DNA of 64,000 nucleotides, taken from NCBI GenBank assembly GCA_020850015.1, contig JADZFF010000102.1, positions 128-64,127 on the forward strand. Direction: 5' to 3'. Origin of the DNA: Bdellovibrionales bacterium (GTDB lineage: Bacteria > Bdellovibrionota > UBA1018 > JADZFF01). Positions 2,527 through 59,402 of the stretch are shown here, piece by piece. The notes beneath the pieces are model-generated. The model did not search any database, was not told the DNA's origin, and saw nothing but the letters and a program-made list of their open reading frames with translations. Both the position numbers and the translations under genes were made by a program. The first letter of the stretch is position 1. The number at the start of each line of letters is the position of its first letter.

Positions 2527-2598
2527 GCGACGGCATGAGGTGAGATGGGATCAGCGGTCCGATACAAACACACGGACGTCCCCCGCCAACCCGGGGAG

Positions 2599-3585: not shown

Positions 3586-3586
3586 T

Positions 3587-5959: not shown

Positions 5960-6714
5960 TGCGCGGAAATCCGATGAAGGCGGTGACGGTGTTCACGAGC
6001 GCGGGCCAGTGCCCGTTCATCGAGGAGCACGCCGAGGTGAACCGCGACCGCGGGATCTTGGTGTTGGCGGATGGTTTCGGCGGTCCGGTGGCGGGCGCAG
6101 ACGCCGCCCGCTCGGCCTGCACGAGCGTACGCCAGTTTCTTGAGAAGGAGGCAGGCGACGAGGAGGCGACTCTGCCCTTTGTCCTCCGCGGATACTACTC
6201 GCTTGCCGGCAACGTGCTATTCAACGCGTTAGTACATGCGAACCGATCAGTTCGAAAGCTGAACGTTTCCCGCAACGTTCATGAGAAGGGAGGCGCCTCG
6301 GTTGCAGCGGGTTACCTGGATGGGAATCTGCTGGCGCTGGCCTCGGTGGGGGCCTGCCAGGCCTGGCTGTTTCGGGGCGGTAGGTCCGGGCGCCTGCTGA
6401 CTCCCAGGGACTACTCCTGGTTGCGTGATCCCCTGACCGAAGACCCGGAGCCCCAGTATCGCGCGCCCCTGGCCGCGCTGGGCATGCATGAGGACCTCGA
6501 GCCTGAGATCGTGGAATGCCAGGTGAGGCCGGGCGACTGGCTGCTGATCCACAGCGGGGGACTGGGTGGCGCCGCCCGGGGAAAACTACTGGAGCTCCAC
6601 CAGGACGCGGCGGACGAGCCCGGAGTTGCGGAAAGGGCCAGACGTGTCTTGGAAGACACCCAAAATCGGGGCGAATTTCAGTCTAACTGTTCGGCATTGC
6701 TTGCCTTATTTTAA
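5959..6714 (+). CDS. PP2C-like Ser/Thr phosphatase fold, possibly catalytically degenerate
   Basis: ILVLADGFGGPVAGADAA matches PP2C motif ADGMGG. The expected GDSR, SDGL and DNxT positions read GACQ, SGGL and SNCS. Its ATG overlaps the previous stop by 1 nt. Confidence 0.65.
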   Translation: MRGNPMKAVTVFTSAGQCPFIEEHAEVNRDRGILVLADGFGGPVAGADAARSACTSVRQFLEKEAGDEEATLPFVLRGYYSLAGNVLFNALVHANRSVRKLNVSRNVHEKGGASVAAGYLDGNLLALASVGACQAWLFRGGRSGRLLTPRDYSWLRDPLTEDPEPQYRAPLAALGMHEDLEPEIVECQVRPGDWLLIHSGGLGGAARGKLLELHQDAADEPGVAERARRVLEDTQNRGEFQSNCSALLALF

Positions 6715-6829: not shown

Positions 6830-7021
6830 ATGAAGTCATTGAAGAGCAAGCTTTTGAGCTTCCTGAGGGAAGAAGAAGGCCAGTCCACGACGGAATACAT
6901 TCTCATCTTGGCCGTCGTGATGGTGATCGCCATGAAGTTCAAGAGCGGCATCTCGGACCAGCTCGGGCGAGCCACCGAGAAGATCGGCGAGAAGATCGGG
7001 AACACGGTCGACGACATCTGA
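6830..7021 (+). CDS. flp: Flp/Fap family type IVb prepilin
   Basis: 63 aa with a basic leader, then the G/QSTTEY processing motif and a hydrophobic helix ILILAVVMVIAM. A GGAG RBS lies upstream. Confidence 0.85.
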   Translation: MKSLKSKLLSFLREEEGQSTTEYILILAVVMVIAMKFKSGISDQLGRATEKIGEKIGNTVDDI

Positions 7022-7098: not shown

Positions 7099-7138
7099 CG
7101 CGCCTACGTGTTAGAATTCCTTTGTGGGGGTATCAGAA

Positions 7139-7390
7139 ATGTTCACGCTCGCACGTGCGCCCACGGCGCCGCGGGCCCATTCCCGTCGCTCGGGACTTGT
7201 CCGTGACGAAAGCGGCCAGTCGACGGTCGAGTACATTCTTCTTCTCGCCTTCGCCATGCTCATCGCGGTTGGGATGTTTTCCGCCCTCAACGAGGGGTTG
7301 AACGAGGGGGTGCTCGCTTTCGGCGCGGCGCTCGAACGCGATCTGCAGACGGGAGGCATGCCTGCTGGCGCATGGGCCGAGGCTCTCTGA
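7139..7390 (+). CDS. Flp-type prepilin paralog with long leader
   Basis: G/QSTVEY motif followed by ILLLAFAMLIAVGMF. The ATG is at 7139, with an alternative GTG at 7124. Confidence 0.7.
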   Translation: MFTLARAPTAPRAHSRRSGLVRDESGQSTVEYILLLAFAMLIAVGMFSALNEGLNEGVLAFGAALERDLQTGGMPAGAWAEAL

Positions 7391-8718: not shown

Positions 8719-9295
8719 GGAAAAGCCGGCCCCGGAAAGGAAACGGAGCGTCCCTGCGGGGGGCGATGCGGGGGAGTCCGGGCAAAGCATCCTGGAGTTC
8801 CTGCTCATGGTGCCTCTGATGATCGGTCTTTCGACGCTCATGGTGAGGGTGAATACGGTGATTCAGGTTTCGATAGCCAATCAGAAGTACGCGCGTGCCC
8901 AGGCGTTCTTCCTGACTTACAACAGCCCCTATTACCCGGAGCTGCGTCTTCGGCAGCGCCTGGTGAACCAGGAATCCAATGAGATGATCATCGGCGTATC
9001 CGACAAGATCGCGCCGAAGAGCGAGGATCAGGCGGAGTACGACCCGGATCCCATCATCGTTCCGATCGTCTCGGCGTCTTCGCTGGCGGGCGAAAGCCAG
9101 GAACCCGAGCTGCCCCCCGAAGGCGGGAAGCGCGGCCGCGTGCGAGTCCGCACCACCGTCACGCTTTGCACGCAAGTGAACGTCGTCGAGACGGGCGACG
9201 GTTTCGTGCCCTACGACGGGTCTTCGATGCTCACTGAGACCCCCGTCGCCGGGCAGGTCACGTTCCCGTTCTGCAGGGGGGTATTCAGTGAATAA
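8708..9295 (+). CDS. TadE/TadF-like pseudopilin
   Basis: ESGQSILEFLLMVPLMIGLSTLM motif after a charged leader. The ATG at 8708 overlaps the previous gene. Confidence 0.65.
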   Translation: MAAEEKPAPERKRSVPAGGDAGESGQSILEFLLMVPLMIGLSTLMVRVNTVIQVSIANQKYARAQAFFLTYNSPYYPELRLRQRLVNQESNEMIIGVSDKIAPKSEDQAEYDPDPIIVPIVSASSLAGESQEPELPPEGGKRGRVRVRTTVTLCTQVNVVETGDGFVPYDGSSMLTETPVAGQVTFPFCRGVFSE

Positions 9296-10166
9296 TCGCG
9301 CGCTCACGCTATCCGTGGTCATGGGCATCCTCGCGGTGTTCTTCGTGCAAAGCTATGTGACGAGCATCGAGGACGGGGCCCGCAAGAAATTCGGCACCGA
9401 GGTGCTGGTCGTCGCCGCGAAGCAGGATATCGAGGAGATGGGCACGATCGACGAGACGATGCTCGAGCTCAAACCGATTCCCAAGACCTTCCTTGAGCCG
9501 GCCGCGATGGCCTATACCAAGGGCGAGGACGAGCAGGCGATCCAGGCCAAGATCAAGGAGCTGGCCGGCTACGTGGCCAGCGTACCGATCCGCCAGGGCG
9601 AGCAGCTGACGCTGAACAAGATCGTGGAGCCGAGCATCCGGACCGGCCTGGCCCCTCAGGTCACGCCCGGGCGCCGCGCGATCGCGATCCAGGTGAATGA
9701 CATCAGCGCGGTGAGCAAGCTGCTGAAGCCGGGCGACCGCGTGGATCTGACCGCGGTGGTCGAAGTCCAGGCGAACGCCCGGGCAAACCCGCTTGCCACG
9801 AAGCTCGCGAAAACGATCCTTCAGGACATCGTGATCCTGGCCGTGGGCCAATCGGTGACGAACAACGCTCCGCGGATCTTCGAGAAGGACGGCAGCTCCA
9901 CGAAGGCGCCCCTCAAGATGCGCTCGCTGGTGACCTACAATCAGTACACTACGGTGACGATCGAGGTGGAGCCCGCCCAGGCCCAGATGCTGGCCCTCCT
10001 GAACGCCGGCGCGCTCGTGCTCACGCTCCGAAACAACGACGACTCGGAACGCGTGGGCCTCGCCGGCATGACGATGATGGACGTGCTCGGGGCCGACGCG
10101 GTGAAGATCCTGCCGCCGCCGCCCCAGGCGGCGCCGGTGGCCAGGAAACCGGCGGGAGGAAAGTAA
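9288..10166 (+). CDS. cpaB: Flp pilus assembly protein CpaB/RcpC
   Basis: N-terminal TM anchor, then a SAF-like segment (VLVVAAKQDIEEMGTI) and an RcpC-like beta-rich region. It sits between the pseudopilin genes and the secretin gene. Confidence 0.8.
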   Translation: MNNRALTLSVVMGILAVFFVQSYVTSIEDGARKKFGTEVLVVAAKQDIEEMGTIDETMLELKPIPKTFLEPAAMAYTKGEDEQAIQAKIKELAGYVASVPIRQGEQLTLNKIVEPSIRTGLAPQVTPGRRAIAIQVNDISAVSKLLKPGDRVDLTAVVEVQANARANPLATKLAKTILQDIVILAVGQSVTNNAPRIFEKDGSSTKAPLKMRSLVTYNQYTTVTIEVEPAQAQMLALLNAGALVLTLRNNDDSERVGLAGMTMMDVLGADAVKILPPPPQAAPVARKPAGGK

Positions 10167-10170
10167 CGGC

Positions 10171-11847
10171 ATGAAACGGCTCCTCCTGGCGGCGCTTCCC
10201 CTTCTCTCGGCGGCCATCCTGGCCGCTGGGGGAATCGTGCGCGCGGAGGATGAGGCACCCGCTGAGGCGCCTTCGCCCGCGGCGGTTCCGTCTGAGGAGG
10301 CTCAGGCCGCGCCAGCGGCTGGCTCGGACGAGGGCGGAGCGGAACCCGGAAAGAGCCTGATCAGCACGAAGTCGGAGAAATCGGCGGAAAGGCGCCGGGA
10401 GCTCCTCACGATCGGCGAGGACAAGCTCGTCGACCTGGAGTTCGACGCGAACGTGTCAGGCAACGGCGTGATCGAAGGCAACAAGGCCGTGGCGACGGCT
10501 CAGCTCGTGCGCGTCCTGGGCAAACCGAAACAGGTGCTCTTCAAGCCTTTGAAAGAGGGCACTACCACGGTTACCATTCGCGACTCGGAGGCGAAGGTGA
10601 GGGTGATCTTCGACATCACCGTCACCTCGACCAACCTGGCTCAGCTCCTCAGGGAGCTCCAGGACCTGCTTCGCGACATCGAGGGGATCGAGCTGCGTGT
10701 GGTGGGGAAGAACATCCTCGTGGATGGCGAGGTGCTGACGCCCAACGACTACGGACGCCTCCTGGGCGTGATCGAGGAGCCCAACTCGCCCTACAAGGAC
10801 GTGGTGATGAACCTCGTCATGTTCTCGCCTCTCGCTCTCCAGTCGCTCGCCAAGCGCATCGAGGGAGACGTAAAATCCTTCGCTCCCGAGGTGCGGGCCA
10901 GGGTGGTCAACGGCAGGATATGGCTCACCGGATCCGTTGAAAATCGCGACCAGGCTCGAAGGGCCGTGGCGGTTGCGGAGCTCTACGTTCCGGAGGTCCG
11001 GCCGCAGGAGCCCCTCGAGAAGTTCGACGAGAACGCGAAACGGCTCACGCCCAAGCCGCTCATCCAGAATTTCATCACGATCAACGCGCCTCCTCAGAAG
11101 AAGGAGGAGAAGCTCATCAGGATGACCGTTCACTTCGTGGAGCTGAACAAGGACTATGCCCGGACCTTCGGGTTCAAGTGGCAGCCGGGCTTTACCCAGG
11201 ACGAGAGCATCACGCTCGCCACGCAGGAGGACGGGGACGCCGGCGCCGGCGGCTCCGGGAGCTTCACCGCCACCATCTCCAACCTCTTTCCCCGCCTCCA
11301 GAGCGCTCAGTCCGCCGGTTTCGCCCGCGTCCTGAAAACTGGAACGATCATGGTACGGAACGGCCAGGCCGCCTCGCTTCGCGATCTCTCGGGGTTCGCG
11401 TTCTCGCTGCCCAACGCCGGCGGCCAGAGCGGCAACGAGCAGGTCACCACCGGGATCAACGTGGCGGCCACGCCGAAGATCGTGGGCAAGACCGAGGACG
11501 TGGAGCTCGATCTCGATCTGAGGCAGGTCAACATCATCGGCATCACCGTGCAGGGCGCGCCGATCACCGCTACTCACGAAGTGAAGACGAAGATCTTCGT
11601 GCGTTCCAAGGAGAGCGCCGCAGTCGCCGCGGTGAACAGCGCGGAGATCACGACGGAGTTCAACAAGACGGATCCCGCGCCGGGCAGCTTCAGCGGTCAG
11701 ACCGGGCCGCTTTTCTCGCTTCTTCGGTCGAAGGATTACCGGAAGAAGAAGAACCAGGTGGTGATCTTCGTCACGCCGCAGATTGTCGAGAACGCCTCCG
11801 ATGGAACCGCGGACCTCAAGAAGAACTTCAGGGTGAAGGCGGAGTGA
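10171..11847 (+). CDS. cpaC: Tad secretin CpaC/RcpA
   Basis: Signal peptide, BON-like N-domain and a secretin C-domain (ARVLKTGTIMVRNGQAASL...GPLFSLLRSKDYRKKKNQVVIFVTPQIV). Confidence 0.9.
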   Translation: MKRLLLAALPLLSAAILAAGGIVRAEDEAPAEAPSPAAVPSEEAQAAPAAGSDEGGAEPGKSLISTKSEKSAERRRELLTIGEDKLVDLEFDANVSGNGVIEGNKAVATAQLVRVLGKPKQVLFKPLKEGTTTVTIRDSEAKVRVIFDITVTSTNLAQLLRELQDLLRDIEGIELRVVGKNILVDGEVLTPNDYGRLLGVIEEPNSPYKDVVMNLVMFSPLALQSLAKRIEGDVKSFAPEVRARVVNGRIWLTGSVENRDQARRAVAVAELYVPEVRPQEPLEKFDENAKRLTPKPLIQNFITINAPPQKKEEKLIRMTVHFVELNKDYARTFGFKWQPGFTQDESITLATQEDGDAGAGGSGSFTATISNLFPRLQSAQSAGFARVLKTGTIMVRNGQAASLRDLSGFAFSLPNAGGQSGNEQVTTGINVAATPKIVGKTEDVELDLDLRQVNIIGITVQGAPITATHEVKTKIFVRSKESAAVAAVNSAEITTEFNKTDPAPGSFSGQTGPLFSLLRSKDYRKKKNQVVIFVTPQIVENASDGTADLKKNFRVKAE

Positions 11848-11851
11848 GGTC

Positions 11852-13993
<2,142 letters not shown>

Positions 13994-14003
13994 GGGGAAG
14001 GGG

Positions 14004-14879
14004 ATGTTTTCGAGCTGGGAGGCTTTTCTGGGGATTCTGGGCATCGGCGTGGCCGTCGGTGGGATCTCCTATCGCTACAACAAGCGGTTCCTGGAGTGGC
14101 TCCGCTTCCACTCGATCGGCACCCGCGATTACATCGCCGAGCGGCTTTCCTCCATGTTCATCGAGATCCCGCCCAATACGATCTTGATCGGGCAGTTCAC
14201 GCTGAGTTTCGGGTTGGGGTCGGTTGTCTTCCTCCTCCTGCTCCCTAAGTGGTTCCTCGGCCTGTTATTGGGAGGGATTGTGATGATCGTCGGCTGGAAG
14301 GTGCCGAAGCCGGTGGTCGACATGATGTATTCCCGACGGGTCAGCAAGCTCGTGGCCCAGATGGTGGACGGCCTGGGATTGATGTCCAACGGGATGAAAT
14401 CAGGCCTGTCCGTGGTCCAGGCGATGGGCCTCGTGACGCAAGAGATGCAGAACCCCATCCGGCAGGAGTTCGAGCTCATCCTGAACGAAAACAAGTTGGG
14501 CGTCTCGCTGGAGGAGGCGTTCACGAATTTCTCGAAAAGGGTGAAATCGGACGACGTGGAGATGTTCGTCACCTCCGTGAACATCCTGAAGGAGACCGGC
14601 GGGAATTTGGCGGAAACCTTCGATACGATCGTCTCCACGATCCGCGAGCGCGTGAAAGTGGAGAACAAGATCAAGGCTTTGACCTCGCAGGGGCTCGTGC
14701 AGGGGATCTTCGTGATGTCCGTGCCCCCGGTCCTGGGGTTTCTGCTGTATCAGAGCGATCCGGACTTCATGCGGCCCCTGTTTACGACTACCATTGGATT
14801 GATTGTCTGCATGGTGATCGTCGTTCTGGAAGTGATCGCGTTCTTCATCATCAGGAAGATCGTCACGATCGACGTATAA
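14004..14879 (+). CDS. tadB: Flp pilus assembly platform protein TadB (T2SS-F family)
   Basis: A single T2SSF-type domain (LVAQMVDGLGLMSNGMKSGLSVVQAM...NILKETGGNLAETFDTI) flanked by TM helices. Confidence 0.8.
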   Translation: MFSSWEAFLGILGIGVAVGGISYRYNKRFLEWLRFHSIGTRDYIAERLSSMFIEIPPNTILIGQFTLSFGLGSVVFLLLLPKWFLGLLLGGIVMIVGWKVPKPVVDMMYSRRVSKLVAQMVDGLGLMSNGMKSGLSVVQAMGLVTQEMQNPIRQEFELILNENKLGVSLEEAFTNFSKRVKSDDVEMFVTSVNILKETGGNLAETFDTIVSTIRERVKVENKIKALTSQGLVQGIFVMSVPPVLGFLLYQSDPDFMRPLFTTTIGLIVCMVIVVLEVIAFFIIRKIVTIDV

Positions 14880-14922: not shown

Positions 14923-16614
14923 ATGCATCGTCAAAAGTCCGCCACTCGCTCGCTTGGTATCTTCGCGGCCGCGCTTCTCCTAGGCGCCGCCGCGCCCGCC
15001 CTGGCGAACGTCAGCCTCCGAAACGGGAACTTCTTCATTGGATACACGGACATCATCTATCCGGGGGGGTTCGAGCCCAAGATCGAGCGTGTCTACAACT
15101 CGAAGTCCGGGTTCAGGGGGATCTTCGGCTGGGGTTGGGGAACCGAGTACGAGGTGCATCTCAAGGTGGCCGCCGACGGCAGCGTCGTGGCTCATGAGTA
15201 CGGCGGCGGCGCGGAGAACAGGTTTTCCCCCGTGGCTTTCAACCAGGCGCAGCTTCAGGGAGCGGCCGACGAGATCGCGGCGGCCGCTCAGAAAGCCGGC
15301 GCCGTGGGCAGCGCGGGCCAGTTGGCCGATCTTAAGAAAAGGCTCCTGGGCGACGCGCGTTTCCGCAACCAGGAATGGGAGAAGTACATCCAGCGCGGGC
15401 TCCTGAAGCCCCGGCAGCTTCCGGCGGGGACCCAGCTCACCTCGAATCGCTTCAGTTATCAATACATCACCAAGGTGAAGGACGGGTATGTCCGGAGCTA
15501 CGACAACGGGCGCGTGGAGCAGTTCGCCGAGAACGGCCGCCTCCTGAAGATCTCCGACAAGAACAACAACTTCATCCAGATCTCGTATTCGAAAGACGGC
15601 AAGGCCGACAAGATCGTCGACAACTTCAACCGCAAGATGTTCCTGACCTACAACGCCCAGGGGAACCTGGTGAAGATCCAGGGTGAGAACGGGAAGGAGG
15701 CCGCCTATACCTACGGTTCGCGTGGCGAGCTCCTTACGAGCAAGGACGTGGATGGCAACACCTACGCCTACACCTACGACAAGATCTACAACCTGACCCA
15801 GGTGAAGTACAAGGACGGGACGTCGATGGATATCGCCTACCTGGGCCGGGATCAGAACGATTCCGTGAGATCCGTGAAAGACCGGGATGGAACGCGCACC
15901 GACTACACCTACGACTGGAGCAAGAAGGAAACGGGTTTCCGCTCGGTGGGCGTGAAGGTTCTCGATAAGGATGGGAAGCGGGTCATCTCGCAGAGCGGAT
16001 ACGAGTACCACCTTAAGCGTAAGGCGAGCGGCGAGGAGTGGACCTACAAGATGGTCACCACCATCGACGGCGACCGCAGCGAGACGATCTACAACGAGTG
16101 TTGCGGCCTTCCGCTGATGATCAAACGCGGCGGCGAGGAAACCACTTTCGAGTACGACACGAAGGGGCACGTGACGAAGAAGACCACCCCCACCGAGACG
16201 ACCGTGCTCGCCTACGACCCGAAGCTGGGCAAGGTGACGAAGGTGATGCGCCAGTCGAAGGTGAGCAAGGCGAGCTCGAGTTGGTCGGAGTTCCAGTACG
16301 ACGGCAAGGGGAACCTGGTGTTCGCGAAGAACTCGACGAACAAGGGGGTCCGCCTGTTCTACGACGCCAACGGACGGATCAAGAGCATGGTGGACCAGGA
16401 CCGCCGCCGCATCGACTTCAAGTACAACGAGAACTCGAAGCCGGTGGAGATCACCGACCCCCAGCTCGGCACCATCCGCGTGAGCTACTCGAACAGCGGG
16501 GAGATCAAGAAGGTGGAGAGCACCGCGGGCCGGAAGATCGCGCTGCAGGTGACTTCGGCCTTCCAGAACCTGCTCGACATCATCCGCCCGGCGGGCGTGA
16601 GCCTGAGCTTCTAG
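14923..16614 (+). CDS. Secreted RHS/YD-repeat protein without recognisable C-terminal toxin or core
   Basis: Signal peptide (AAPALA/N) and a DUF6531-like start (GNFFIGYTD...RVYNS...GIFGWGWGTEYE). Many YD repeats follow (YTYGSRGELLTSKDVDGNTYAYTYD, FEYDTKGHVTK, FYDANGRIKS). It ends ...VSLSF. Confidence 0.8.
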   Translation: MHRQKSATRSLGIFAAALLLGAAAPALANVSLRNGNFFIGYTDIIYPGGFEPKIERVYNSKSGFRGIFGWGWGTEYEVHLKVAADGSVVAHEYGGGAENRFSPVAFNQAQLQGAADEIAAAAQKAGAVGSAGQLADLKKRLLGDARFRNQEWEKYIQRGLLKPRQLPAGTQLTSNRFSYQYITKVKDGYVRSYDNGRVEQFAENGRLLKISDKNNNFIQISYSKDGKADKIVDNFNRKMFLTYNAQGNLVKIQGENGKEAAYTYGSRGELLTSKDVDGNTYAYTYDKIYNLTQVKYKDGTSMDIAYLGRDQNDSVRSVKDRDGTRTDYTYDWSKKETGFRSVGVKVLDKDGKRVISQSGYEYHLKRKASGEEWTYKMVTTIDGDRSETIYNECCGLPLMIKRGGEETTFEYDTKGHVTKKTTPTETTVLAYDPKLGKVTKVMRQSKVSKASSSWSEFQYDGKGNLVFAKNSTNKGVRLFYDANGRIKSMVDQDRRRIDFKYNENSKPVEITDPQLGTIRVSYSNSGEIKKVESTAGRKIALQVTSAFQNLLDIIRPAGVSLSF

Positions 16615-16750
16615 GGCCATGCCCCGGAGGCCGACCAAGGATTCGACAGATAACAGCGTTCAGTCGGAGGCCGGGCCCATGTGTCGGGTCGGACACGGAA
16701 CTAAGGGCCTGGAATCAAAGGGGACCGAAATTCCCGCGCGAAGCGAGGCG

Positions 16751-16766
16751 TGGCACCGGAGTTGCT
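16751..16766 (+). promoter_or_regulatory. Sigma-54 promoter (-24/-12)
   Basis: TGGCAC-cggag-TTGCT, an exact match to TGGCAC-N5-TTGCW, 56 nt upstream of the ATG at 16822. An inverted repeat GTGTC-N6-GACAC lies at 16681-16696. Confidence 0.75.
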
Positions 16767-16821
16767 CTCTAGTAGGGCGTATCCGAAGTGATAGAATGAA
16801 AACGAGCAGAGGAGTTTCGAC

Positions 16822-17001
16822 ATGAACAAGCAATTTTCCCTGAAGGCCCTTTTCGCCCTCGTGCTGATCGCCGCGTCGATCTCCAGCGGTTCGGTGCTGG
16901 CCTGCGGCGGCACGAACGACTCGAGCGACTCTAACCCGCCGCCGGATGCCACGGGCACCGGTCCCGGCACCGGTGGCGGCGCAGGCGGCGCGAACCCGTA
17001 A
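16822..17001 (+). CDS. 59-aa predicted lipoprotein with disordered Gly/Pro/Thr-rich mature part
   Basis: ATG with an AGGAG RBS. The signal peptide ends in a lipobox-like VLAC. It is not in the ORF track (<60 aa). Its sequence is MNKQFSLKALFALVLIAASISSGSVLACGGTNDSSDSNPPPDATGTGPGTGGGAGGANP. Confidence 0.5.
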   Translation: MNKQFSLKALFALVLIAASISSGSVLACGGTNDSSDSNPPPDATGTGPGTGGGAGGANP

Positions 17002-17034
17002 TCTCGCGGGACGAGCTCACAATCGATTTTCTTG

Positions 17035-17068
17035 GGAAGGGCGCGGGCCAGTCAGGCCGCGCCCTTCC
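17035..17068 (+). terminator. Strong GC stem-loop after the small lipoprotein gene
   Basis: GGAAGGGCGCGG ... CCGCGCCCTTCC (12-bp perfect stem), followed by a ~150-nt C-rich, G-poor tract. Confidence 0.5.
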
Positions 17069-17221
17069 TGCTTTCCGCCCGCCAACTGATCTCCCACCTC
17101 TGTCCAAGCACTAGCCACCCGCCAGCCTGGGTCACGGCTGACCTCCCCACCCCCCGATTCCGCTTCCCCGCGGGCACCTGAAAACCCCAATCATTTCCGA
17201 ACTTCACCGGGTGTGTCACTG

Positions 17222-17237
17222 TGGCACCACCGTTGCA
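17222..17237 (+). promoter_or_regulatory. Sigma-54 promoter (-24/-12)
   Basis: TGGCAC-caccg-TTGCA, an exact consensus match about 105 nt upstream of the ATG at 17343. Confidence 0.75.
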
Positions 17238-17282
17238 ACCCTTCCCTTCCGTGTAGTTCCGCTGGTTTTGAGAGAGCCCGCG

Positions 17283-17317
17283 GATGTTGAGTTGATGTTG
17301 AAGACACGTTGATGTTG
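17283..17317 (+). repeat. Three direct copies of GATGTTG (two as GTTGATGTTG) in the predicted 5' leader
   Basis: Copies lie at 17283-17289, 17294-17300 and 17311-17317, between the sigma-54 promoter and the RBS of the 17343 ORF. Confidence 0.8.
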
Positions 17318-17342
17318 CTCGCAGAGCGGAAGTGGAGTGCAG

Positions 17343-17618
17343 ATGAATAAGCGCCTTGTTTCGATCATGATGTTCGGTGTGTTTCTTTCCCCCAACGTCC
17401 TGGCCGTTTCCTCGGGAGCCGGTCATGTCGTGCTGTTTGAAGCCAGCGAAGAAGAACGTCCCTCGGGCCGCGCGGCGGGCCGCGACGCCGGTGAGATGAC
17501 CCTGTCCGAGCATTCGGGCAAGGACGCTCAGTGCGCGTTCGATGCGAACCCCCGCCACGCGTTGCTGGAGCGCTCTGGCGACTCCGGCGCCGCGGGACGC
17601 GGCTCGCGCGCGCTCTAA
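17343..17618 (+). CDS. Small (91 aa) secreted hypothetical protein, low complexity
   Basis: GGAG RBS, and the signal-peptide-like MNKRLVSIMMFGVFLSPNVLAVSS. The mature part is charged and Gly/Ala/Ser-rich. No recognisable family. Confidence 0.45.
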   Translation: MNKRLVSIMMFGVFLSPNVLAVSSGAGHVVLFEASEEERPSGRAAGRDAGEMTLSEHSGKDAQCAFDANPRHALLERSGDSGAAGRGSRAL

Positions 17619-17736
17619 GCGCTCGAGTCCGAGATAGGTTGAACCGGGCCCGGCCGGCGTGAACGTTACCTGAGTTAAAAGCGGTACGTAACGCCGGAAG
17701 TTGATGATTGCCGGCCGGCCCGGAAAGACCTCGCTC

Positions 17737-17997
17737 TTACTTCGACGGCTTCGAGTTGAGCTCGCGAATGAGATCGCGCAGCTTCTGGCGCTCGGTGGTG
17801 AGCAGCTCCTCGGCCGATTTCAGGCCCTTCGCCGCGGGAGTGTCCCCCGAAAGCTCCCGCTCCGCCGCCGCCATCCCGGACTTCACGTGATCGGAAACCG
17901 TGCGTCCGTCCCATCGCAGCCAATGGCCCACCGCGAGCACGATCAGGGCAAAAGCAGCCACCTTCAACAGCGTCCAAACGGCTTTAAGCATGCGCAT
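17737..17997 (-). CDS. Small single-pass membrane protein with C-terminal coiled coil
   Basis: MRMLKAVWTLLKVAAFALIVLAVGHW gives a TM helix. Its start overlaps the stop of the upstream CheX-like gene. Last gene of the operon. Confidence 0.45.
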   Translation of the reverse strand: MRMLKAVWTLLKVAAFALIVLAVGHWLRWDGRTVSDHVKSGMAAAERELSGDTPAAKGLKSAEELLTTERQKLRDLIRELNSKPSK

Positions 17998-18442
17998 CTC
18001 CAGGGAGCGAGGCATCGCGCTCCGTGACCACGATGATCTCCCGGCCTGCGGCTCCGCCGGGCAGGTGAAGGTATCGGATGATTTCGGCCTCCGGGGTGGC
18101 GGCGAGCCGCATGGCCAGGGCTACGGCGTCGGACTCGCGTTTCAAGGAGGGCGGAGAGGGAAGCCCGGCCCAGAGATCGGCCAGCCGGCTTGCCAGGAGG
18201 TTTCCGAGCTCGCACCAGGGTGAGGCATCGCCGTCGTCCTCGAAGAAGACATGAAGCAGCGCGGAGCCATCCAGGCCGTGCACGGAAAAGCTGGCGCAGG
18301 CCGGGCGCAGGAAGGCGTCCGCGGGGTTGCGCTCATCCGTTGGCGCGGGGGCGCCGTCGCCCCCCGCGCGTTCCACGCGCCCAAGCCCGTAGAAATCGAA
18401 CGCCAGAGGCAGGAGTTCAGACGCTGAGTGGGCGGAGCTCAT
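17984..18442 (-). CDS. CheX/CheC-like phosphatase candidate
   Basis: SPWCELGNLLASRLA fits the CheC/CheX active-site motif S-x3-E-x2-N (compare ELGNMTAGKLA in CheX). Size ~150 aa. An ATGA overlap joins it to the upstream CheY-like gene. Confidence 0.4.
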   Translation of the reverse strand: MSSAHSASELLPLAFDFYGLGRVERAGGDGAPAPTDERNPADAFLRPACASFSVHGLDGSALLHVFFEDDGDASPWCELGNLLASRLADLWAGLPSPPSLKRESDAVALAMRLAATPEAEIIRYLHLPGGAAGREIIVVTERDASLPGDAHA

Positions 18443-18852
18443 GTCGCGTTCTTCGGGGATGGGTGGGGCCGGGCCTCCACGCGTTCGCTGCCCGTGAGCG
18501 CGTGTTCCAACGTCTTCAGGACATCATCCTTCGTGAAAGGCTTCAGGATGTAATCTTTGGCGCCGGCGTTGATCGCTTCCATCACCAGGTTTTCCTGGCC
18601 CATGGCGGAGATGATCACCACCTTGGCCTCCTTATCGAGCTTCATGATCCGGCGGGTGGCCTCGATTCCGCTGAGCTTCGGCATCACCACGTCCATGGTC
18701 ACCAGATCGGGCTGGAGCTGGCGGTAAAGCTCCACGGCGTGCAGGCCGTCCTCCGCCTCGCCCACCACCTGATAGTGACCCTCGGAGAGGATCTGGGTGA
18801 GCGTGCGCCGCACGAAGGCCACGTCATCAACAATGAGGACAGTACGAGCCAT
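18439..18852 (-). CDS. cheY: Single-domain CheY-like response regulator
   Basis: VLIVDDVAFVR...DLVTMDVVMPKLSG...VIISAMG...DYILKPF, so all receiver signature residues are present. A GGAGGG RBS precedes the ATG at 18852. Confidence 0.85.
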   Translation of the reverse strand: MARTVLIVDDVAFVRRTLTQILSEGHYQVVGEAEDGLHAVELYRQLQPDLVTMDVVMPKLSGIEATRRIMKLDKEAKVVIISAMGQENLVMEAINAGAKDYILKPFTKDDVLKTLEHALTGSERVEARPHPSPKNAT

Positions 18853-18929
18853 CCCTAGCCCTCCAGGTGAATAGTGTACTGGGAAGACCCGGAAGGGCAA
18901 AGGGGGGACGGCGAATTGACGGCGGCCCC

Positions 18930-24225: not shown

Positions 24226-25317
24226 TCAGATGAAGTTGTTCCTGAGATGCCCGTGCCGCTTCACCAGGTAATTGGAAATCCTCTCGATGCTGGATACGAG
24301 CCGCGAGTTCGGGAACTCCAGCATCAGCGGGCGCTTTCGCCGCACCGCCTGCCATACAGCGCTGTCGTAATCCAGGTAGCCGACGTAATCCATCTCGATT
24401 CCGAAGTATTTCTTGCAGACGCTTTTCACCGAGAAGCCGATGTCGACGTCCGTGTGCGTGCGGGCCTGGTTCACCACGAGCTTGGGGCGAAGTTTCTCGA
24501 TCTCGGCCTTCAGGTGCATCCCGGCTTCCGGGTTCGCTTTGTTCACCTCGCGGAAAAGGTCGGCAGGGGTGCGGATCCCGTGCTCGCCCTTGCCTCGCAT
24601 GGCGGCGTCGATCAGGTGCTGGACTTTCCGAAGCTTGGGCGAGAGCTTGAGGCGGCGGTAGTAGATGCTCTTGATGAATCGGTAGGCGTTCTCGATCGAC
24701 GTCGGCTCAGGGAGCAGCGTGATGATGCCGATGTCGGCGTAGATGAAGAAATCGAGTGTGTTGAAGTTGGTGCCGGCACCCAGATCGAAAACGACGTAGT
24801 CCGTGTCGAGCTCGCGGAGCTGTTGGAGGAGGCGGGTTTTCTGCTCAATGGGAAGGTTCGAGACACCGACCGCGTCCTGCGCCCCGCTGATGATGTCGAG
24901 ATTGGGCACTCCCGAGGGCGAAAGGCAGTCTCCCAGGCTAGCGATCTGCCCCGTGAGAAAGTCGCTGAGGGTGCGTTTCGGCGGTTCCACTCCGAGAGCC
25001 GTGTGCAGGTTCGCGGCGCCGAGGTCGAGGTCGATCGCGGCCACCTTGTTTCCCATGCGTGCGAGCGCGATGGCGAGGCTCGAGGCCACGAGGCTCTTGC
25101 CCACGCCGCCCTTTCCGCCTCCGATGGCCCATACTTGTTTCACGCGGCTGGTGCCGGGCACGGCCACGCGCTCGAAGGGATTTTCTTCGCGTCCTGAAGG
25201 CAGCGCCTCGGAGTCGGGTTCGGCAATCGGCGGATTGGGAAGTTCGCCGGGCGGAGTCAACCCGCTCGAGGATTCGTCGTCGCCACTGGAGGCTTCAGAA
25301 GAAGAAGAGTGAACCAC
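24226..25317 (-). CDS. ParA/MinD-family P-loop ATPase with acidic Ser-rich N-terminal extension
   Basis: Deviant Walker A GGGKGGVGKS, DLDLGAANLH and VVFDLGAG. GTG start with a GGAGG RBS. Confidence 0.85.
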   Translation of the reverse strand: MVHSSSSEASSGDDESSSGLTPPGELPNPPIAEPDSEALPSGREENPFERVAVPGTSRVKQVWAIGGGKGGVGKSLVASSLAIALARMGNKVAAIDLDLGAANLHTALGVEPPKRTLSDFLTGQIASLGDCLSPSGVPNLDIISGAQDAVGVSNLPIEQKTRLLQQLRELDTDYVVFDLGAGTNFNTLDFFIYADIGIITLLPEPTSIENAYRFIKSIYYRRLKLSPKLRKVQHLIDAAMRGKGEHGIRTPADLFREVNKANPEAGMHLKAEIEKLRPKLVVNQARTHTDVDIGFSVKSVCKKYFGIEMDYVGYLDYDSAVWQAVRRKRPLMLEFPNSRLVSSIERISNYLVKRHGHLRNNFI

Positions 25318-25604: not shown

Positions 25605-25620
25605 TGGCACTTCAATTGCT
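25605..25620 (+). promoter_or_regulatory. Sigma-54 promoter (-24/-12)
   Basis: TGGCAC-ttcaa-TTGCT, an exact consensus match 38 nt upstream of the ATG at 25658. An inverted repeat AGTGC-N13-GCACT lies at 25524-25546. Confidence 0.75.
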
Positions 25621-25657: not shown

Positions 25658-26368
25658 ATGAAGAGTTCGAGCGAAGCTGTTCGGCCGTATGTTTCTTCAG
25701 GCGCGGCGCGCGCGATGGCAACGGACGTTGTCTCCGCGGTGCGCCTCCGGCCTCGGCATGATCTGCACCTTCTGAGGAAGGCCTGGCACCTCGGGATGGG
25801 GCTTCTCATGGTGGGCATCTATCAGCACAGCATGTCGCGCGAGATGGCGGTGACGGTGTTGGGTTCGGTGCTCGCAGGATTCCTCATGATCGAGTCGGCC
25901 CGTCTTCGGATTCCGGCCCTGAATGCGGTCAGCATGCGGGTCTGGGGCCCTCTGATGCGCAAGGGCGAGGAAACACGGATGAGCGGCCTGCCCTATTACG
26001 TGGGCGCAACTCTTCTCGCGATCGCGATTTTCCCTAAGCCGGTCGCGGTTCTCTGCGTGATGTTCCTCGCCATCGGGGATCCGCTCGCCTCCCTCGTGGG
26101 CATTCTTTATGGCGATCGCGGACCCCGGTTCGCGAGCGGCAAGTCGCTCATCGGCACGGCGGCGGGTGTTGCCGCCTGCATCACCGTGGCGCTTCTTTTC
26201 CTGAATGGCCTCTCGATGGACGTCCTCACTTGGCTTACCGTCTCCGTGATCGGCGGCTTCGTGGGCGGCACGGTGGAACTTCTCCCCTTCGAGGTGGACG
26301 ACAATTTCTCGATTCCGGTCGTTTCCGGCTTCGTGCTTTGGCTCCTCTTCCTCCTGGCAGGGGTCTGA
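25658..26368 (+). CDS. Polytopic membrane protein of the dolichol/polyprenol (phytol) kinase - CdsA superfamily
   Basis: Multiple TM helices, plus FLAIGDPLASLVGILYG....F..GKSLIGTAAG, typical of COG0170-type CTP-dependent kinases. The ATG has a GGAGAGGA RBS. Confidence 0.6.
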   Translation: MKSSSEAVRPYVSSGAARAMATDVVSAVRLRPRHDLHLLRKAWHLGMGLLMVGIYQHSMSREMAVTVLGSVLAGFLMIESARLRIPALNAVSMRVWGPLMRKGEETRMSGLPYYVGATLLAIAIFPKPVAVLCVMFLAIGDPLASLVGILYGDRGPRFASGKSLIGTAAGVAACITVALLFLNGLSMDVLTWLTVSVIGGFVGGTVELLPFEVDDNFSIPVVSGFVLWLLFLLAGV

Positions 26369-26550: not shown

Positions 26551-27420
26551 ATGAATAAAACCAGACACTTGCAGTTGTCGCGCTCCTGGGGCGGCCGGTT
26601 GACGGCCGGGGCCCTGGTTTGCGCGTTGCTGCAGGGGTCGGCCCTGGGGGCTCCGATCCGGTTCAGCCCTGATTGGAGCGCCGGAGCCGAGCAGGTTGCC
26701 CCGAACCAGAGCTTCCTGGATAACCTTTCCACTGGCCCCGCAGGGGCCTGGGATCCAGAAGCCATTCTCGACGCCCAATCGACCGAGAAGATCCGCCTTC
26801 AGTACGAAACCATGACCCGGACTCAGCGCCTGCGCGAGGACTACAGCCTCACGACTCCGATGGAGGAGCGCTCGCATATGTCCCGCATGGGCGACTTCAC
26901 CAGGCACGTGCTCAGGACGATCTTCCAGTATCACGTTCAGGATCGCGTGAAGCGCGCCGAGAGGAATTCGGCCGAGGTGCGCACCTTCCGCACGGTATCG
27001 CAGTCGATGGAAAAGATGACGGTGAAGGTGGACGAGGGGATCGAGTTCGGCACCCGCACGGACATTCCCAACCAGAAGGGAACGCTCTGGGCGCGTTCGC
27101 CGTATCTCGACGCCTCGTTCGACATGAACCTGGGATCGGCCTGGGCGGATCCCCTTCAGCAGAATCCCGACAAGGTGGATCCGCGTTCGGCGAACAACGA
27201 GCGTTTTCGCATTGCCGTTTCCCGCAGGCTTCCGGTGCTGGCCCTCCGCGCCGGAGTGACCTACGGGATCGACAGTACGCTGCTCACAGCCTCGCTTTCG
27301 CGAAGGCTGACCCCGAACCTCACCGCAGAAGTCTTGAACCGCCAGGGACTGAATCAGTCGCGCTCGGGCCTGACGGGGGCTGAGCAGGCGGTGAAAATGA
27401 ACTACGGGATCGCCTTCTGA
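26551..27420 (+). CDS. Secreted / outer-membrane hypothetical protein
   Basis: Signal peptide (ALLQGSALG/AP). The C-terminal half has alternating beta-like segments and ends ...MNYGIAF, an aromatic terminal residue typical of OMPs. Confidence 0.55.
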   Translation: MNKTRHLQLSRSWGGRLTAGALVCALLQGSALGAPIRFSPDWSAGAEQVAPNQSFLDNLSTGPAGAWDPEAILDAQSTEKIRLQYETMTRTQRLREDYSLTTPMEERSHMSRMGDFTRHVLRTIFQYHVQDRVKRAERNSAEVRTFRTVSQSMEKMTVKVDEGIEFGTRTDIPNQKGTLWARSPYLDASFDMNLGSAWADPLQQNPDKVDPRSANNERFRIAVSRRLPVLALRAGVTYGIDSTLLTASLSRRLTPNLTAEVLNRQGLNQSRSGLTGAEQAVKMNYGIAF

Positions 27421-28814
27421 ATCCCGAGTTCCTTCATCTTGAGTTGAAGCCCCTTCCTTGAGAGCCCGAGCCTCTCCGCGGCACGAGTGACATTGCCCTC
27501 GGTTTCCTCGAGCGCGCGCTCGAGGAAACCGCGCTCGAGGTCCTGCATCCTCCGGCGCACGATGTCCTTGAAGTTGGAAAGGTCCTGGATCTCCTCGGGC
27601 GTGGGGTTTCCCGATGGGCCCGAGCCCGCGTCCTTCACCGGGTCCGGGAGAGCGTCGTAGGTGAGCATGTCGGCATCCGCCAAGAGCACCATGCGTTCGA
27701 TCAGGTTCTCGAGCTGCCGGATGTTTCCCGGCCAGGCGTAGGAGCGGAGGGCGGCGAAACACCGCGGCTCGATCCGAGAGACCGTTTTTCCCAGACGGGT
27801 GTTGAAGCGCTCGATGAAGTATCCGATCAAGGTCACCAGGTCGTCGCGCCGCTCCCTGAGCGGGGGCAGCCGAAGCGGAACTACGTTCAATCGGTAGAAG
27901 AGGTCCTCCCGGAAGCGGCCCTCCGCCACCTCTTTCTCCAGATCCTTGTTGGTGGCCGCGATGATCCGAACATCCACACGAACGGAGGTTACGCCCCCTA
28001 CGCGCTCGATCTCCTTTTCCTGGAGCGCGCGAAGGAGCTTCACCTGCATCTCCTGCGGCATGTCGGCCACCTCGTCGAGAAAAAGGGTGCCTTCATGCGC
28101 AAGCTCGAAGCGGCCCGGCTTGGAGCCTACCGCGCCTGTGAACGCTCCGCGCTCGTATCCGAATAGCTCGCTCTCGATCAGGGTAGAGGGGATCGCGGCG
28201 CAGTTCACTTTGATGAAGGGCTTCTTCACGCGGTCGGACCGCGTGTGCACCGCGAGCGCCACGAGCTCTTTCCCCGTGCCGCTCTCGCCGGTGATCAGCA
28301 CGGTGGTCGGCGATGGCGCGATCTTGCCGATCACCTTGTAGATCTCCTGCATCTGGGGGCTCGCGCCCACGAGGGGGTTCACGAGCGTGCCGGTTTCGTC
28401 CGATTCCAGGGATGGCGCCGGGAGCGCGATCGGCTCGTTCCGGCTGCGGCGATGGGTTTCCGTCGCCTTCCGCGCCACGCTCAGGAGCTCCTGTTGATCG
28501 AAGGGTTTAGTGATGAAGTCGAAGGCGCCGCGCTTGAGGGCGGAAACCGCGCTTTCAACGGTTCCGTGAGCCGTGATCATTACCACCGGGAGCTGGGGGA
28601 AGTGCCGCGCGCAATGATCCAGAATTTCCATGCCGTTCACCTCCGGCATCATGAGATCCGTAATCACCAGGTCCGGGGATTCGGCCTCGATCATCCCGTA
28701 GGCCGCCCTGGAATCGTTGATAGTAACGACATCGAATCCCGCTTTCTGAAGCATGGCCGTGACGACGAACGCCACGTTCTTTTCGTCGTCGATCACCAAT
28801 ACCTTCGAGCTCAT
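27402..28814 (-). CDS. NtrC-family sigma-54-dependent response regulator (REC-AAA+-Fis HTH)
   Basis: Receiver (VLVIDDE...DLVITDLMMP), Walker A GESGTGKE, an intact GAFTGA loop (ERGAFTGAVG) and a C-terminal HTH (GNVTRAAERLGLSRKGL). Confidence 0.9.
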   Translation of the reverse strand: MSSKVLVIDDEKNVAFVVTAMLQKAGFDVVTINDSRAAYGMIEAESPDLVITDLMMPEVNGMEILDHCARHFPQLPVVMITAHGTVESAVSALKRGAFDFITKPFDQQELLSVARKATETHRRSRNEPIALPAPSLESDETGTLVNPLVGASPQMQEIYKVIGKIAPSPTTVLITGESGTGKELVALAVHTRSDRVKKPFIKVNCAAIPSTLIESELFGYERGAFTGAVGSKPGRFELAHEGTLFLDEVADMPQEMQVKLLRALQEKEIERVGGVTSVRVDVRIIAATNKDLEKEVAEGRFREDLFYRLNVVPLRLPPLRERRDDLVTLIGYFIERFNTRLGKTVSRIEPRCFAALRSYAWPGNIRQLENLIERMVLLADADMLTYDALPDPVKDAGSGPSGNPTPEEIQDLSNFKDIVRRRMQDLERGFLERALEETEGNVTRAAERLGLSRKGLQLKMKELGIQKAIP

Positions 28815-30940: not shown

Positions 30941-30971
30941 AGTTAGGGGCTCGCCTTTCCATAGCACATGG

Positions 30972-31049
30972 AAGGGGTCGGTGCCTTTTCTGCGTAACGG
31001 CGCGTCATCGCAATGACGCGCCGTTACGCAGAAAAGGCTCCGACCCCTT
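30972..31049. repeat. 78-bp near-perfect palindrome (37-bp arms, 1 mismatch, 4-nt centre)
   Basis: AAGGGGTCGGTGCCTTTTCTGCGTAACGGCGCGTCAT-cgca-ATGACGCGCCGTTACGCAGAAAAGGCTCCGACCCCTT, in the divergent intergenic region between the kinase gene and the 31093 gene. Confidence 0.9.
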
Positions 31050-31092
31050 AAAGCCTGACAGGGGGTCAAGAATCCGACCGATAGGCAACCGT

Positions 31093-56049: not shown

Positions 56050-56050
56050 T

Positions 56051-57073: not shown

Positions 57074-57079
57074 TCGCCA

Positions 57080-59313: not shown

Positions 59314-59402
59314 CCCGGGGCAATCCCTGCCCGGTCCCTTTCTACCCGGGAAATTCGTTCAGTCTGGCGGTGCCGTAGCGACACCGTGAGAATGAAAGGG
59401 AG

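Follow-up and report, generated by a model that had tools for sequence, protein, structure and literature searches.

The stretch of DNA analysed here, 64,000 nt of contig JADZFF010000102.1 from a Bdellovibrionales bacterium (assembly GCA_020850015.1; the whole stretch is referred to below as the window), has a G+C content of 64% and carries a cluster of Flp/Tad pilus genes that ends in a gene for a secreted RHS/YD-repeat protein (14923-16614, + strand). This gene is followed on the same strand by two small open reading frames (ORFs), ORF1 (16822-17001) and ORF2 (17343-17618), each of which encodes a predicted exported protein and is preceded by a sigma-54 promoter motif of its own. The observation is confirmed, and comparison with related loci supports its main interpretation; the region would be the distal end of a locus of the hit (host-interaction) type known from Bdellovibrio.

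Two small genes behind sigma-54 promoter motifs

The motif upstream of ORF1 (P1, TGGCACCGGAGTTGCT, 16751-16766, + strand) consists of TGGCAC, the spacer CGGAG and TTGCT, and the one upstream of ORF2 (P2, TGGCACCACCGTTGCA, 17222-17237, + strand, or 17212-17237 if the preceding TGTGTC-N4 is included) of TGGCAC, CACCG and TTGCA. Both match the consensus TGGCAC-N5-TTGCW exactly, and the spacing of the GG and GC doublets is exactly 10 nt in each. There are three exact matches in the window compared with 0.02 expected, none of 100 dinucleotide-preserving shuffles reaches three, and if one mismatch is allowed, five matches are found compared with 1.0 expected. The two exact -24/-12 elements pointed out in a preliminary description of this DNA are thus borne out.

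All three exact motifs are intergenic and correctly oriented ahead of a ribosome-binding site (RBS) and an ORF. The third one (TGGCACTTCAATTGCT, 25605-25620, + strand) is followed by GGAGAGG and an ATG. The ORF that it opens (25659-26368, + strand) runs divergently from a ParA-like gene (24226-25317, - strand), and its ~236-aa product is a polytopic membrane protein that matches CTP_transf_1 weakly.

Transcription is predicted to start at ~16777 from P1 and at ~17248 from P2, giving leaders of ~45 nt (ORF1) and ~95 nt (ORF2), each with an RBS before the ATG; the motifs end 55 nt (P1-ORF1) and 105 nt (P2-ORF2) upstream of the start codons, on the same strand. Neither of the window leaders forms a stable structure (folding z -0.3 and +1.6 compared with shuffles). 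Neither a sigma-70 promoter (+ strand) nor a T-tract terminator turned up in consensus scans of the region 16400-18200, the hairpins found there being without long U tracts. From these motifs we infer that P1 and P2 are used by sigma-54.

ORF1 (RBS GAGGAG at 16809-16814, 7 nt before the ATG) encodes 59 aa, namely a signal peptide (N-terminal sequence MNKQFSLKALFALVLIAASISSGSVLAC...) and a tail of 32 aa that begins with the single Cys28 (codon 16903-16905) and is rich in Gly, Pro, Thr, Asp and Ser. The predicted mature product (CGGTNDSSDSNPPPDATGTGPGTGGGAGGANP, 32 aa) has zero hydrophobic residues. The gene starts 207 nt past the stop codon of the RHS gene, and P1 lies 137 nt past it. The G+C content at third codon positions (GC3) of ORF1 is 0.83, compared with 0.78-0.90 in the flanking real genes, and that of the overlapping alternative frames 16038-16772 and 16619-16825 is 0.45 and 0.59; an antisense ORF (16701-16970) was set aside as a typical high-G+C shadow. 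Downstream of ORF1 there is a terminator-like hairpin (17034-17069, + strand; -31.3 kcal/mol, z -2.8) with a perfect 12-bp core, GGAAGGGCGCGG/CCGCGCCCTTCC, followed by UGCUUUCC.

ORF2 encodes 91 aa from the ATG (RBS GGAG at 17334-17337, 5 nt upstream) or 93 aa from an alternative GTG at 17337, with a signal peptide (MNKRLVSIMMFGVFLSPNVLA) that is probably cleaved after VLA21 and a body of ~70 aa. As had been described, the gene lies behind P2 and the body is charged and of low complexity, being rich in Ala, Gly, Ser, Glu and Arg, with 8 Lys and Arg, 11 Asp and Glu, and one Cys (Cys63, codon 17530-17532, in GEMTLSEHSGKDAQCAFDANP). GC3 of this gene is 0.75. The products of both genes start with MNK, followed by the hydrophobic core of the signal peptide. 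A single-sequence AlphaFold2 (AF2) model of ORF2, made without an alignment, shows a helix in the signal peptide only (pLDDT 56), and the composition of both proteins likewise suggests that they are probably disordered.

Neither ORF1 nor ORF2 has an accepted match among Pfam and NCBIfam families; an 'invert_tail' match (18.9 bits, cut-off 37) was judged low-complexity noise. No Rfam family was found in this region of the window. An antisense ORF (17052-17558), which spans 188 codons here and 96 in the closest related locus (L049, see below), was again dismissed as a high-G+C shadow. The ORF2 leader contains a direct repeat of GTTGATGTTG (17291-17300 and 17308-17317), which was dropped as a functional element, since L049 has no such repeat and the leader is unstructured (z -0.33).

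Between ORF2 and the next, convergent gene there is a long GC-rich hairpin (17637-17729, + strand; -44.2 kcal/mol, z -4.1), likely a bidirectional terminator. Its inner part (17645-17697, CGGCGTGAACGTTACC...GGTACGTAACGCCG) is better kept in L049 than the ORF2 coding sequence, which suggests a role beyond that of a generic terminator, for example as a protein-binding palindrome or an element of the 3' untranslated region.

Related loci and upstream elements

For the comparison, 79 loci around RHS homologues were collected, one genome per species, with the G+C content ranging from 0.36 to 0.64. Promoters were counted in the 71 loci whose sequence continues for 400 nt or more past the RHS stop codon, a motif being accepted if it had at most one mismatch, kept GG and GC, and lay on the coding strand within 1.1 kb of the stop. 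At least one sigma-54 motif follows the RHS gene in 44 of the 71 loci, and two motifs in 17. The motif density is 0.80 per kb after the RHS gene compared with 0.014 per kb over both strands of the remaining sequence of these loci, a 57-fold enrichment. Nearly every motif of this family precedes an RBS and an ORF of 59-134 aa with a signal peptide and a low-complexity tail.

A first small ORF after the RHS gene is present in 67 loci. In 24 of them it abuts the RHS stop codon (12-60 nt) and never has its own promoter, while in the 43 loci where it lies further away, an intervening sigma-54 motif is found in 32. Where there is a second small ORF, a sigma-54 motif nearly always precedes it. The mature part has a single Cys in 56 of the 67 first ORFs and 31 of the 32 later ones (most exceptions have three or five), and second ORFs of the window clade share a loose motif G-E-x(9-14)-C, as in GEMTLSEHSGKDAQC and GEKSASQMNGRMLAC. 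The frame, the length class and the single Cys of the small ORFs are kept across 36-64% G+C, and the gene order RcpC, secretin, CpaEF, TadBC, RHS is invariant in all loci.

The closest relative, L049, has an RHS protein 87% identical to that of the window over residues 271-563, the part present on its contig. P1 and P2 are unchanged there, within blocks of 19 nt and 33 nt (the latter including GGGTGTGTCA), in the midst of intergenic DNA that is otherwise scrambled. ORF1 and its L049 homologue have the same length and are 36% identical, with nine synonymous-only codon changes; the ORF2 homologues are 43% identical, with 13 such changes, and their mature parts match at E 1.5e-8 (there is no significant match between the mature parts of ORF1). 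Both ORFs are thus kept in a relative, and the family extends across dozens of loci; judged by these comparisons, ORF1 and ORF2 are fast-evolving but real genes.

The RHS proteins of this family (~560 aa) form more than 150 clusters at 50% identity with full-length matches, and full-length members also occur beyond the predators, in Leeuwenhoekiella (Bacteroidota) and Pleionea (Gammaproteobacteria) (P0324, P0302). In the loci labelled as Bacteroidota, L072 and L075, neither small signal-peptide ORFs nor a sigma-54 motif were found downstream of the RHS gene.

The only two Cys residues of the window RHS protein are adjacent (Cys393-Cys394, codons 16099-16104), within NECCGLP. This near-invariant pair is a feature of the window clade, many representatives of the wider family having no Cys at all. 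The single Cys of the small proteins might pair with the adjacent Cys residues of the RHS protein or take part in disulfide chemistry between the partners.

The regions upstream of the promoters were compared in 67 family promoters, P1 being counted among them. At positions -160 to -45, an enrichment of 14-23 times is seen for the words TAGACA, GTCTAA and AGACAG, and TGTC-N9-GACA is found upstream of eight promoters, compared with 0.2 expected. The underlying conserved, enhancer-like motif is the palindrome CTGTCTAAAnTTTAGACAG, matched in at least 12 of 18 positions upstream of 50 of the 67 promoters and in 4.7% of random 200-nt windows. The centres of the palindromes cluster at -70, -90/-91, -98, -111/-112 and -120/-121 from the start of TGGCAC, in steps of ~10 nt (about one helical turn), a spacing that would suit a looping activator constrained to one face of the helix.

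In the window such palindromes are found at 16631-16649 (CCGACCAAGGATTCGACAG, + strand), centred 111 nt before the -24 box of P1, and at 17100-17118 (CTGTCCAAGCACTAGCCAC, + strand), centred 113 nt before that of P2, both with 12 of 18 positions matching CTGTCTAAAnTTTAGACAG. Their L049 counterparts are at -111 and -112.

The preliminary description had placed a possible site of an enhancer-binding protein (EBP) in the inverted repeat GTGTC-N6-GACAC (16681-16696, + strand). The repeat is indeed there, with arms of 5 bp only, but the conserved element is of the TGTC-N9-GACA type and lies 111-113 nt upstream. Its folding energy is no more favourable than that of shuffled sequences (z +0.31), L049 retains just the left half, and the repeat was rejected as a conserved enhancer, TGTC-N6-GACA being present upstream of just one of the 67 family promoters compared with eight for TGTC-N9-GACA. 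Still, the words GTGTC and GACAC are 12 times enriched upstream of the family promoters, also around -60 to -90, and in 17 of the 67 promoters, P2 among them, GTGTC stands no more than 15 nt ahead of the -24 box, mostly at a distance of 4-5 nt, compared with an expectation of 0.37 per 10-nt bin.

The only EBP seen in the window is an NtrC-type response regulator (27402-28814, - strand; receiver, Sigma54_activat at 1.6e-73, HTH_8) ~10 kb from the locus, with a histidine kinase encoded by the adjacent gene (28811-31069, - strand); nothing ties this regulator to P1 or P2. There is no rpoN in the window. The idea of a locus-linked EBP was dropped, as apparent EBP matches in the related loci proved to be the CheY receiver only.

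Correspondence with the Bdellovibrio hit locus

The Bdellovibrio RHS protein Bd0109 (62.5 kDa) is secreted, lacks a toxin tip and is encoded beside the Tad genes bd0110-bd0119. It is bound by Bd0108, a secreted intrinsically disordered protein of 101 aa with C56xxC59, and bd0108 mutants can grow independently of prey (PMC3818213, PMC4267844). FliA drives the Tad operon from its flp1 end; bd0108 is given as a gene outside FliA control (PMC5430801). Strain HD100 encodes an RpoN-like factor, bd0843 (PMC11209729).

The searches with the RHS proteins of the window and of locus L067 listed no Bdellovibrio proteins, and the genome scan patterns missed Bd0109. A profile built from ten representatives of the family of the 'VDMKNANY' type matched the genus Bdellovibrio, while ten clusters of the 'GVNLKNGNFY' type led to Leeuwenhoekiella and Pleionea. 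The B. bacteriovorus protein Q68VD7 ('rhs family' in UniRef; 551 aa, 62.8 kDa, 13 YD/YE) fits the published Bd0109, and the window RHS protein is 33.8% identical to it over 538 aa (E 4.9e-93). Moreover, a CheY-like receiver encoded downstream of the window genes shares 41% identity (E 5e-29) with the one encoded after the hit locus of B. bacteriovorus (L081, 6690-7082, - strand).

Because of the homology between the RHS protein and Bd0109 and the shared CheY-like gene, the window appears to hold a hit-type locus, with ORF1 in the place of bd0108. Common to both loci are flp pilins, Tad genes, TadB/C, the RHS gene, a small signal-peptide gene and a convergent CheY-like gene. Like Bd0108, the small window protein is predicted to be exported, is of low complexity and bears a cysteine. 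Unlike Bd0108, ORF1 has 59 aa rather than 101 aa and one Cys rather than CXXC. It also has a sigma-54 promoter of its own, while bd0108 homologues abut the RHS gene (14-16 nt) and bd0108 is co-transcribed with it (PMC3818213). The earlier analogy with Bd0108 therefore holds for the position, the RHS partner (34% identity to Bd0109) and the gene order and not for the sequence; since ORF1 has no detectable similarity to Bd0108, it rests on position and partner.

Four loci of the genus Bdellovibrio were analysed: L081 (B. bacteriovorus, CP168971), L082 (B. bacteriovorus, LUKE01), L083 (a Logan assembly contig with the same RHS protein as Bdellovibrio sp. BCCA) and L084 (B. reynosensis). In all four, the RHS gene is followed after 14-16 nt by a Bd0108 homologue (96-97 aa, CPEC or CKEC) and a classical terminator. 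After the terminator come a TGGCAC-N5-CTGCA or TGGCAC-N5-ATGCA box, a leader of ~58 nt with an RBS, and an ORF of 57-66 aa with a signal peptide, its only Cys in [NQS]PKC[ANS]H[RQ], and a tail rich in Ser, Thr and Lys. The layout recurs in the more distant relative L086, where the box is TGGCAC-N5-TCGCT. Such a box in the slot of ~200 nt was found in six of the seven added loci L080-L086 (five of the Bdellovibrio clade and L080 of the L067 group), compared with 1.3 matches to the relaxed pattern expected in all 120 kb of strand sequence.

A palindrome resembling GTCTC-N5-GAGAC abuts the -24 box of the second gene, being exact in L083 and L086 and partial in L081, L082 and L084 (L081 6060-6081, L082 6070-6097, L083 5060-5086, L086 5068-5086). 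It is a candidate operator.

The second small gene appears to occupy the place of a published transcript. Capeness et al. (2013) described a 261-bp 'small non-coding RNA' at bases 96455-96716 of HD100, between bd0103 and bd0108; it lies downstream of bd0108 and is up-regulated in all bd0108 mutants (PMC3818213). As c.127 of bd0108 in HD100 is at ~97050 (PMC11323537, Table 1), the stop codon of bd0108 is near 96871 and the 5' end of the RNA ~155 nt past it. In L081, transcription of the second unit is predicted to start at ~6108, 150 nt past the stop codon of the bd0108 homologue (5958), and the ORF stop is at 6366, so that the distance from start to stop is ~259 nt. The unit in L081 (~150 nt, ~259 nt) thus resembles the HD100 RNA (~155 nt, 261 nt) both in position and in length.

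HD100 primers for reverse transcription PCR have no match in the four strains at three or fewer mismatches. Still, the primer 103-108sRNAR, read in frame as S-L-I-A-S-V, matches the signal-peptide codons T-M-I-A-S-G of L082 in 14 of 20 positions, and the reverse complement of 103-108sRNAF reads D-S-V-Q-T-R, resembling the C-terminal tails ...TVRTGTK and ...KTQSGVR.

Because position and length agree in the sister strains, the HD100 'small RNA' is probably the sigma-54-dependent mRNA of a second small secreted protein, as judged from these strains and not from the HD100 sequence. The candidate operator next to the -24 box could underlie the rise of this RNA in bd0108 mutants. In the window, ORF2 likewise is the second unit past the RHS gene, on the same strand and before convergent genes. 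The HD100 RNA, unlike ORF2, was taken to be non-coding, and its promoter was not assigned to a type.

The literature searched contains no link of bd0108 or the hit locus to sigma-54 or RpoN, and among the later papers listed only one mentions the small RNA, without reinterpreting it. A control of the small genes by sigma-54 that is conserved among these loci, and a second small secreted protein that is likewise conserved, appear to be unreported in that literature.

Similar arrangements are known from two other systems. In Halobacteriovorax (Bacteriovorax) marinus SJ, two small signal-peptide genes, BMS0183 and BMS0184, follow the Bd0109 homologue BMS_0182 (PMC3526173, PMC4267844). The window also has two tandem small exported proteins after the RHS gene of a Tad/hit locus; unlike the H. 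marinus pair, which was read as a tandem duplication of hit, ORF1 and ORF2 are dissimilar to each other. Sigma-54 and an enhancer-binding activator control pilus genes in Pseudomonas aeruginosa and Myxococcus xanthus, where PilS-PilR acts on pilA. As in that case, small, predicted exported proteins encoded beside pilus genes are found here behind -24/-12 promoter motifs, with a candidate upstream activator site. Unlike pilA products, ORF1 and ORF2 are not pilins: they have no class III leader, and the Flp motif (G, then xxxxEY and a hydrophobic helix) is absent from both translations.

The Tad locus and RHS gene that had been noticed directly upstream are confirmed by Pfam matches. The cluster, all on the + strand, opens with a gene for an Flp-type pilin of 63 aa (6830-7021, ...EEGQSTTEYILILAVV..., Flp motif G-xSTTEY), followed by a second Flp-type pilin gene (7124-7390, start codon approximate, ...ESGQSTVEYILLLAF..., also with the Flp motif); neither pilin gene has a sigma-54 motif. 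Next come TadE-like genes, RcpC/CpaB (9288-10166, RcpC 1.1e-20), a Tad secretin of the RcpA/CpaC type (10171-11847, Secretin 1e-11 and BON), a CpaE-CpaF fusion ATPase resembling TadZ/TadA (11852-13993, CbiA/ParA and T2SSE 4.6e-62) and a platform protein of the TadB/C type (14004-14879, T2SSF 2.3e-17).

The RHS protein itself (563 aa, DUF6531 and RHS_repeat) is of the Bd0109 type, with a signal peptide and no toxin tip. Its AF2 model (pLDDT 84.6) consists of an all-beta YD sheet, a helical insert and a C-terminal helix. There is no structure of Bd0109 in the PDB, only generic Rhs cores, and the best matches of the window protein are such cores of ~1,000 residues, about double its length. As modelled, the fold would be compatible with a binding surface or a partial shell for a disordered partner, a role that has been proposed for Bd0109.

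Downstream of ORF2, the ORF list contains a convergent gene for a membrane-anchored protein of 92 aa (17737-18015, - strand); no family match was found for it, and homologues occupy the same place in 11 loci. Further convergent genes encode a 152-aa protein, the CheY-like receiver mentioned above and Lon. The receiver, a single-domain response regulator (18439-18900, - strand; Response_reg 3.5e-30), is encoded downstream in 29 related loci and may act with the locus in signalling.

Directly upstream of the flp genes, the region 889-6714 (+ strand) encodes a PP2C-type phosphatase and three proteins with FHA domains, one of which also has PAS and the other two TPR. These genes are reminiscent of the FHA and Ser/Thr phospho-signalling attached to Tad-like Kil systems; in the related loci, for which an upstream flank of 6 kb was taken, this linkage falls outside the flank. 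Elsewhere in the window there are a second secretin gene (41335-42822, - strand) and flagellar genes (54370-62115, + strand), among them those for an FliF-type M-ring protein (54370-56049) and an FliK-like hook-length protein (60433-62115).

Interpretation and competing explanations

The comparative evidence supports the earlier claim of two small exported proteins with their own sigma-54 promoters beside Tad and RHS genes, and we consider it probable that this region is the distal end of a hit-type locus of an uncultured, high-G+C member of the Bdellovibrionota, in which two signal-gated mini-genes encode exported single-Cys peptides that work with the RHS protein. The Flp/Tad operon would end in the secreted, toxin-less RHS protein and be followed by two independent mini-genes, each with a palindrome ~111-113 nt upstream, a sigma-54 promoter, a leader with an RBS, a small ORF and a terminator hairpin. 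Sigma-54 RNA polymerase would wait in a closed complex at each promoter for an enhancer-binding ATPase at the palindrome to open it, so that both proteins would appear only in response to a signal and independently of the pilus operon. The products would then be exported by Sec and their signal peptides cut, leaving low-complexity single-Cys peptides of 32 aa and ~70 aa in the periplasm or at the surface. There, by analogy with Bd0108-Bd0109, they would most likely bind the RHS protein and tune pilus extrusion or retraction together with a growth or lifestyle signal. In the best-supported correspondence, ORF1 would be the positional equivalent of Bd0108, and ORF2 would correspond to the second gene that had been overlooked. 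Of this scheme, we infer the steps from export onward, including RHS binding and the physiological role, as well as disorder and the identity of the activator.

For the Bdellovibrionota as a whole, sigma-54 with an EBP may be the missing transcriptional input of the hit locus, and the HD100 'small RNA' a sigma-54 mRNA of a second secreted single-Cys protein of the Hit type, with the second gene conserved by position, promoter type and architecture from Bdellovibrio to distant uncultured clades; for this wider proposal we regard the case as evenly balanced.

Several observations weigh against these proposals. At the threshold of one mismatch, 27 of the 71 loci have no motif, and there is none in L062, whose small ORFs are Halobacteriovorax-like (G+C 0.37). 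In the Bdellovibrio clade the -12 box of the second gene deviates from the consensus (CTGCA, ATGCA or TCGCT), and the bd0108 homologues of the genus, abutting the RHS gene, have no sigma-54 promoter of their own. In BLASTP comparisons of ORF1 and ORF2 with the Bd0108 homologues of four Bdellovibrio genomes and L086, the best E-values are 0.14-1.4, and the window proteins have no CXXC; neither do they show detectable similarity to the Bdellovibrio second ORF, so that the equivalence is positional only. Both window palindromes are degenerate, 12 matches of 18 being reached by ~5% of random windows, and no EBP gene linked to the locus was found in the related genomes. Finally, disorder is deduced from composition and a single-sequence AF2 run, which is weak evidence.

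Among the other explanations, the units behind the promoters could act as small non-coding RNAs, their ORFs being incidental. The HD100 transcript downstream of bd0108 was called non-coding and goes up in bd0108 mutants (PMC3818213), and the ORFs are short and their sequences fast-evolving. Nevertheless, we find this unlikely, as every unit has an RBS, a start codon and a Sec-type signal peptide, and frame, length class and single Cys persist from 36% to 64% G+C. A coding-type pattern of substitutions is also visible in Bdellovibrio, where the second ORFs of L081 and L084 differ at codon positions 1, 2 and 3 by 6, 3 and 17 nucleotides, with 15 synonymous-only and seven non-synonymous codon changes and one in-frame indel of three codons (the corresponding differences between the bd0108 homologues are 10, 4 and 41), and a synonymous bias is seen between the window and L049. 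Moreover, the window leaders are unstructured, and the Bdellovibrio 'small RNA' slot, like the window region, has no Rfam match. A dual-function RNA, both coding and acting as RNA, is possible.

Similarly unlikely is that ORF1 is a conventional outer-membrane lipoprotein, yielding a 32-aa lipopeptide, and ORF2 an unrelated periplasmic protein, the two belonging to a general sigma-54 envelope regulon with no tie to RHS or Tad. Sigma-54 regulons are often enriched in envelope functions (PMC3162934), the third sigma-54 promoter of the window precedes the gene of an unrelated membrane protein, and the SVLAC of ORF1 (Val at -3, Leu at -2, Ala at -1) passes a relaxed PROSITE-type lipobox pattern. 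However, the strict pattern [LVI][ASTVI][GAS]C fails at the -2 Leu, and VLA|C fits signal peptidase I (AXA-like) equally well. Lipobox conservation was not seen in the ORF1 homologues: L049 has KAFAC, and in most of the 67 first ORFs the single Cys lies 1-20 residues past an AXA site of signal peptidase I, which makes this Cys a feature of the family and not necessarily a lipidation site. Hence, of the 59-aa 'lipoprotein' described earlier, the ORF, VLAC and the Gly/Pro/Thr-rich tail hold up, while lipoprotein status is doubtful. A general regulon also does not agree with the position after the RHS gene, which is kept in nearly all loci, with 24 of the 67 first ORFs only 12-60 nt away.

It is very improbable that the small genes serve an Rhs toxin cassette in an immunity or accessory role. 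Their position directly downstream would suit this role, small ORFs after rhs genes being classically immunity proteins, a point also made in the literature (PMC3818213). The window RHS protein has, however, just 563 aa, about half the length of the Rhs cores of type VI secretion systems that match it best; it contains neither the PxxxxDPxGL autoprotease motif nor a variable toxin domain, and its C-terminus is a family-conserved helix (...AFQNLLDIIRPAGVSLSF) that is conserved across orthologues and not polymorphic. Besides, the small proteins carry signal peptides, and the RHS gene is inside the Tad operon in all loci. Although the E. coli sigma-54 holoenzyme binds many non-productive sites, and intragenic and orphan sites are common (PMC4591121), the excess of exact motifs in the window, their enrichment after the RHS gene across the 71 loci and their base-for-base conservation in L049 leave hardly any room for P1 and P2 as chance or non-functional sites, the least probable of these explanations.

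The proposal of signal-gated mini-genes at the end of a hit-type locus bears on the switch between obligate predation and prey-independent growth in Bdellovibrio, for which bd0108 is the best-known genetic handle. The regulation of the hit locus and the role of the neighbouring 'small RNA' are questions that have stood since 2013. If the small genes are indeed sigma-54-dependent, their expression would pass through a signal-activated AAA+ activator, which would provide a concrete entry point to the regulation of the locus. If the HD100 'small RNA' is an mRNA, the hit system would gain a second secreted component, one that genetic screens and models have ignored. More generally, the module of an RHS protein and small disordered proteins is widespread and fast-evolving, and it is recognised by its architecture (a signal peptide, one Cys and a low-complexity tail) and not by sequence, a rule that helps in annotating small proteins in metagenome-assembled genomes.

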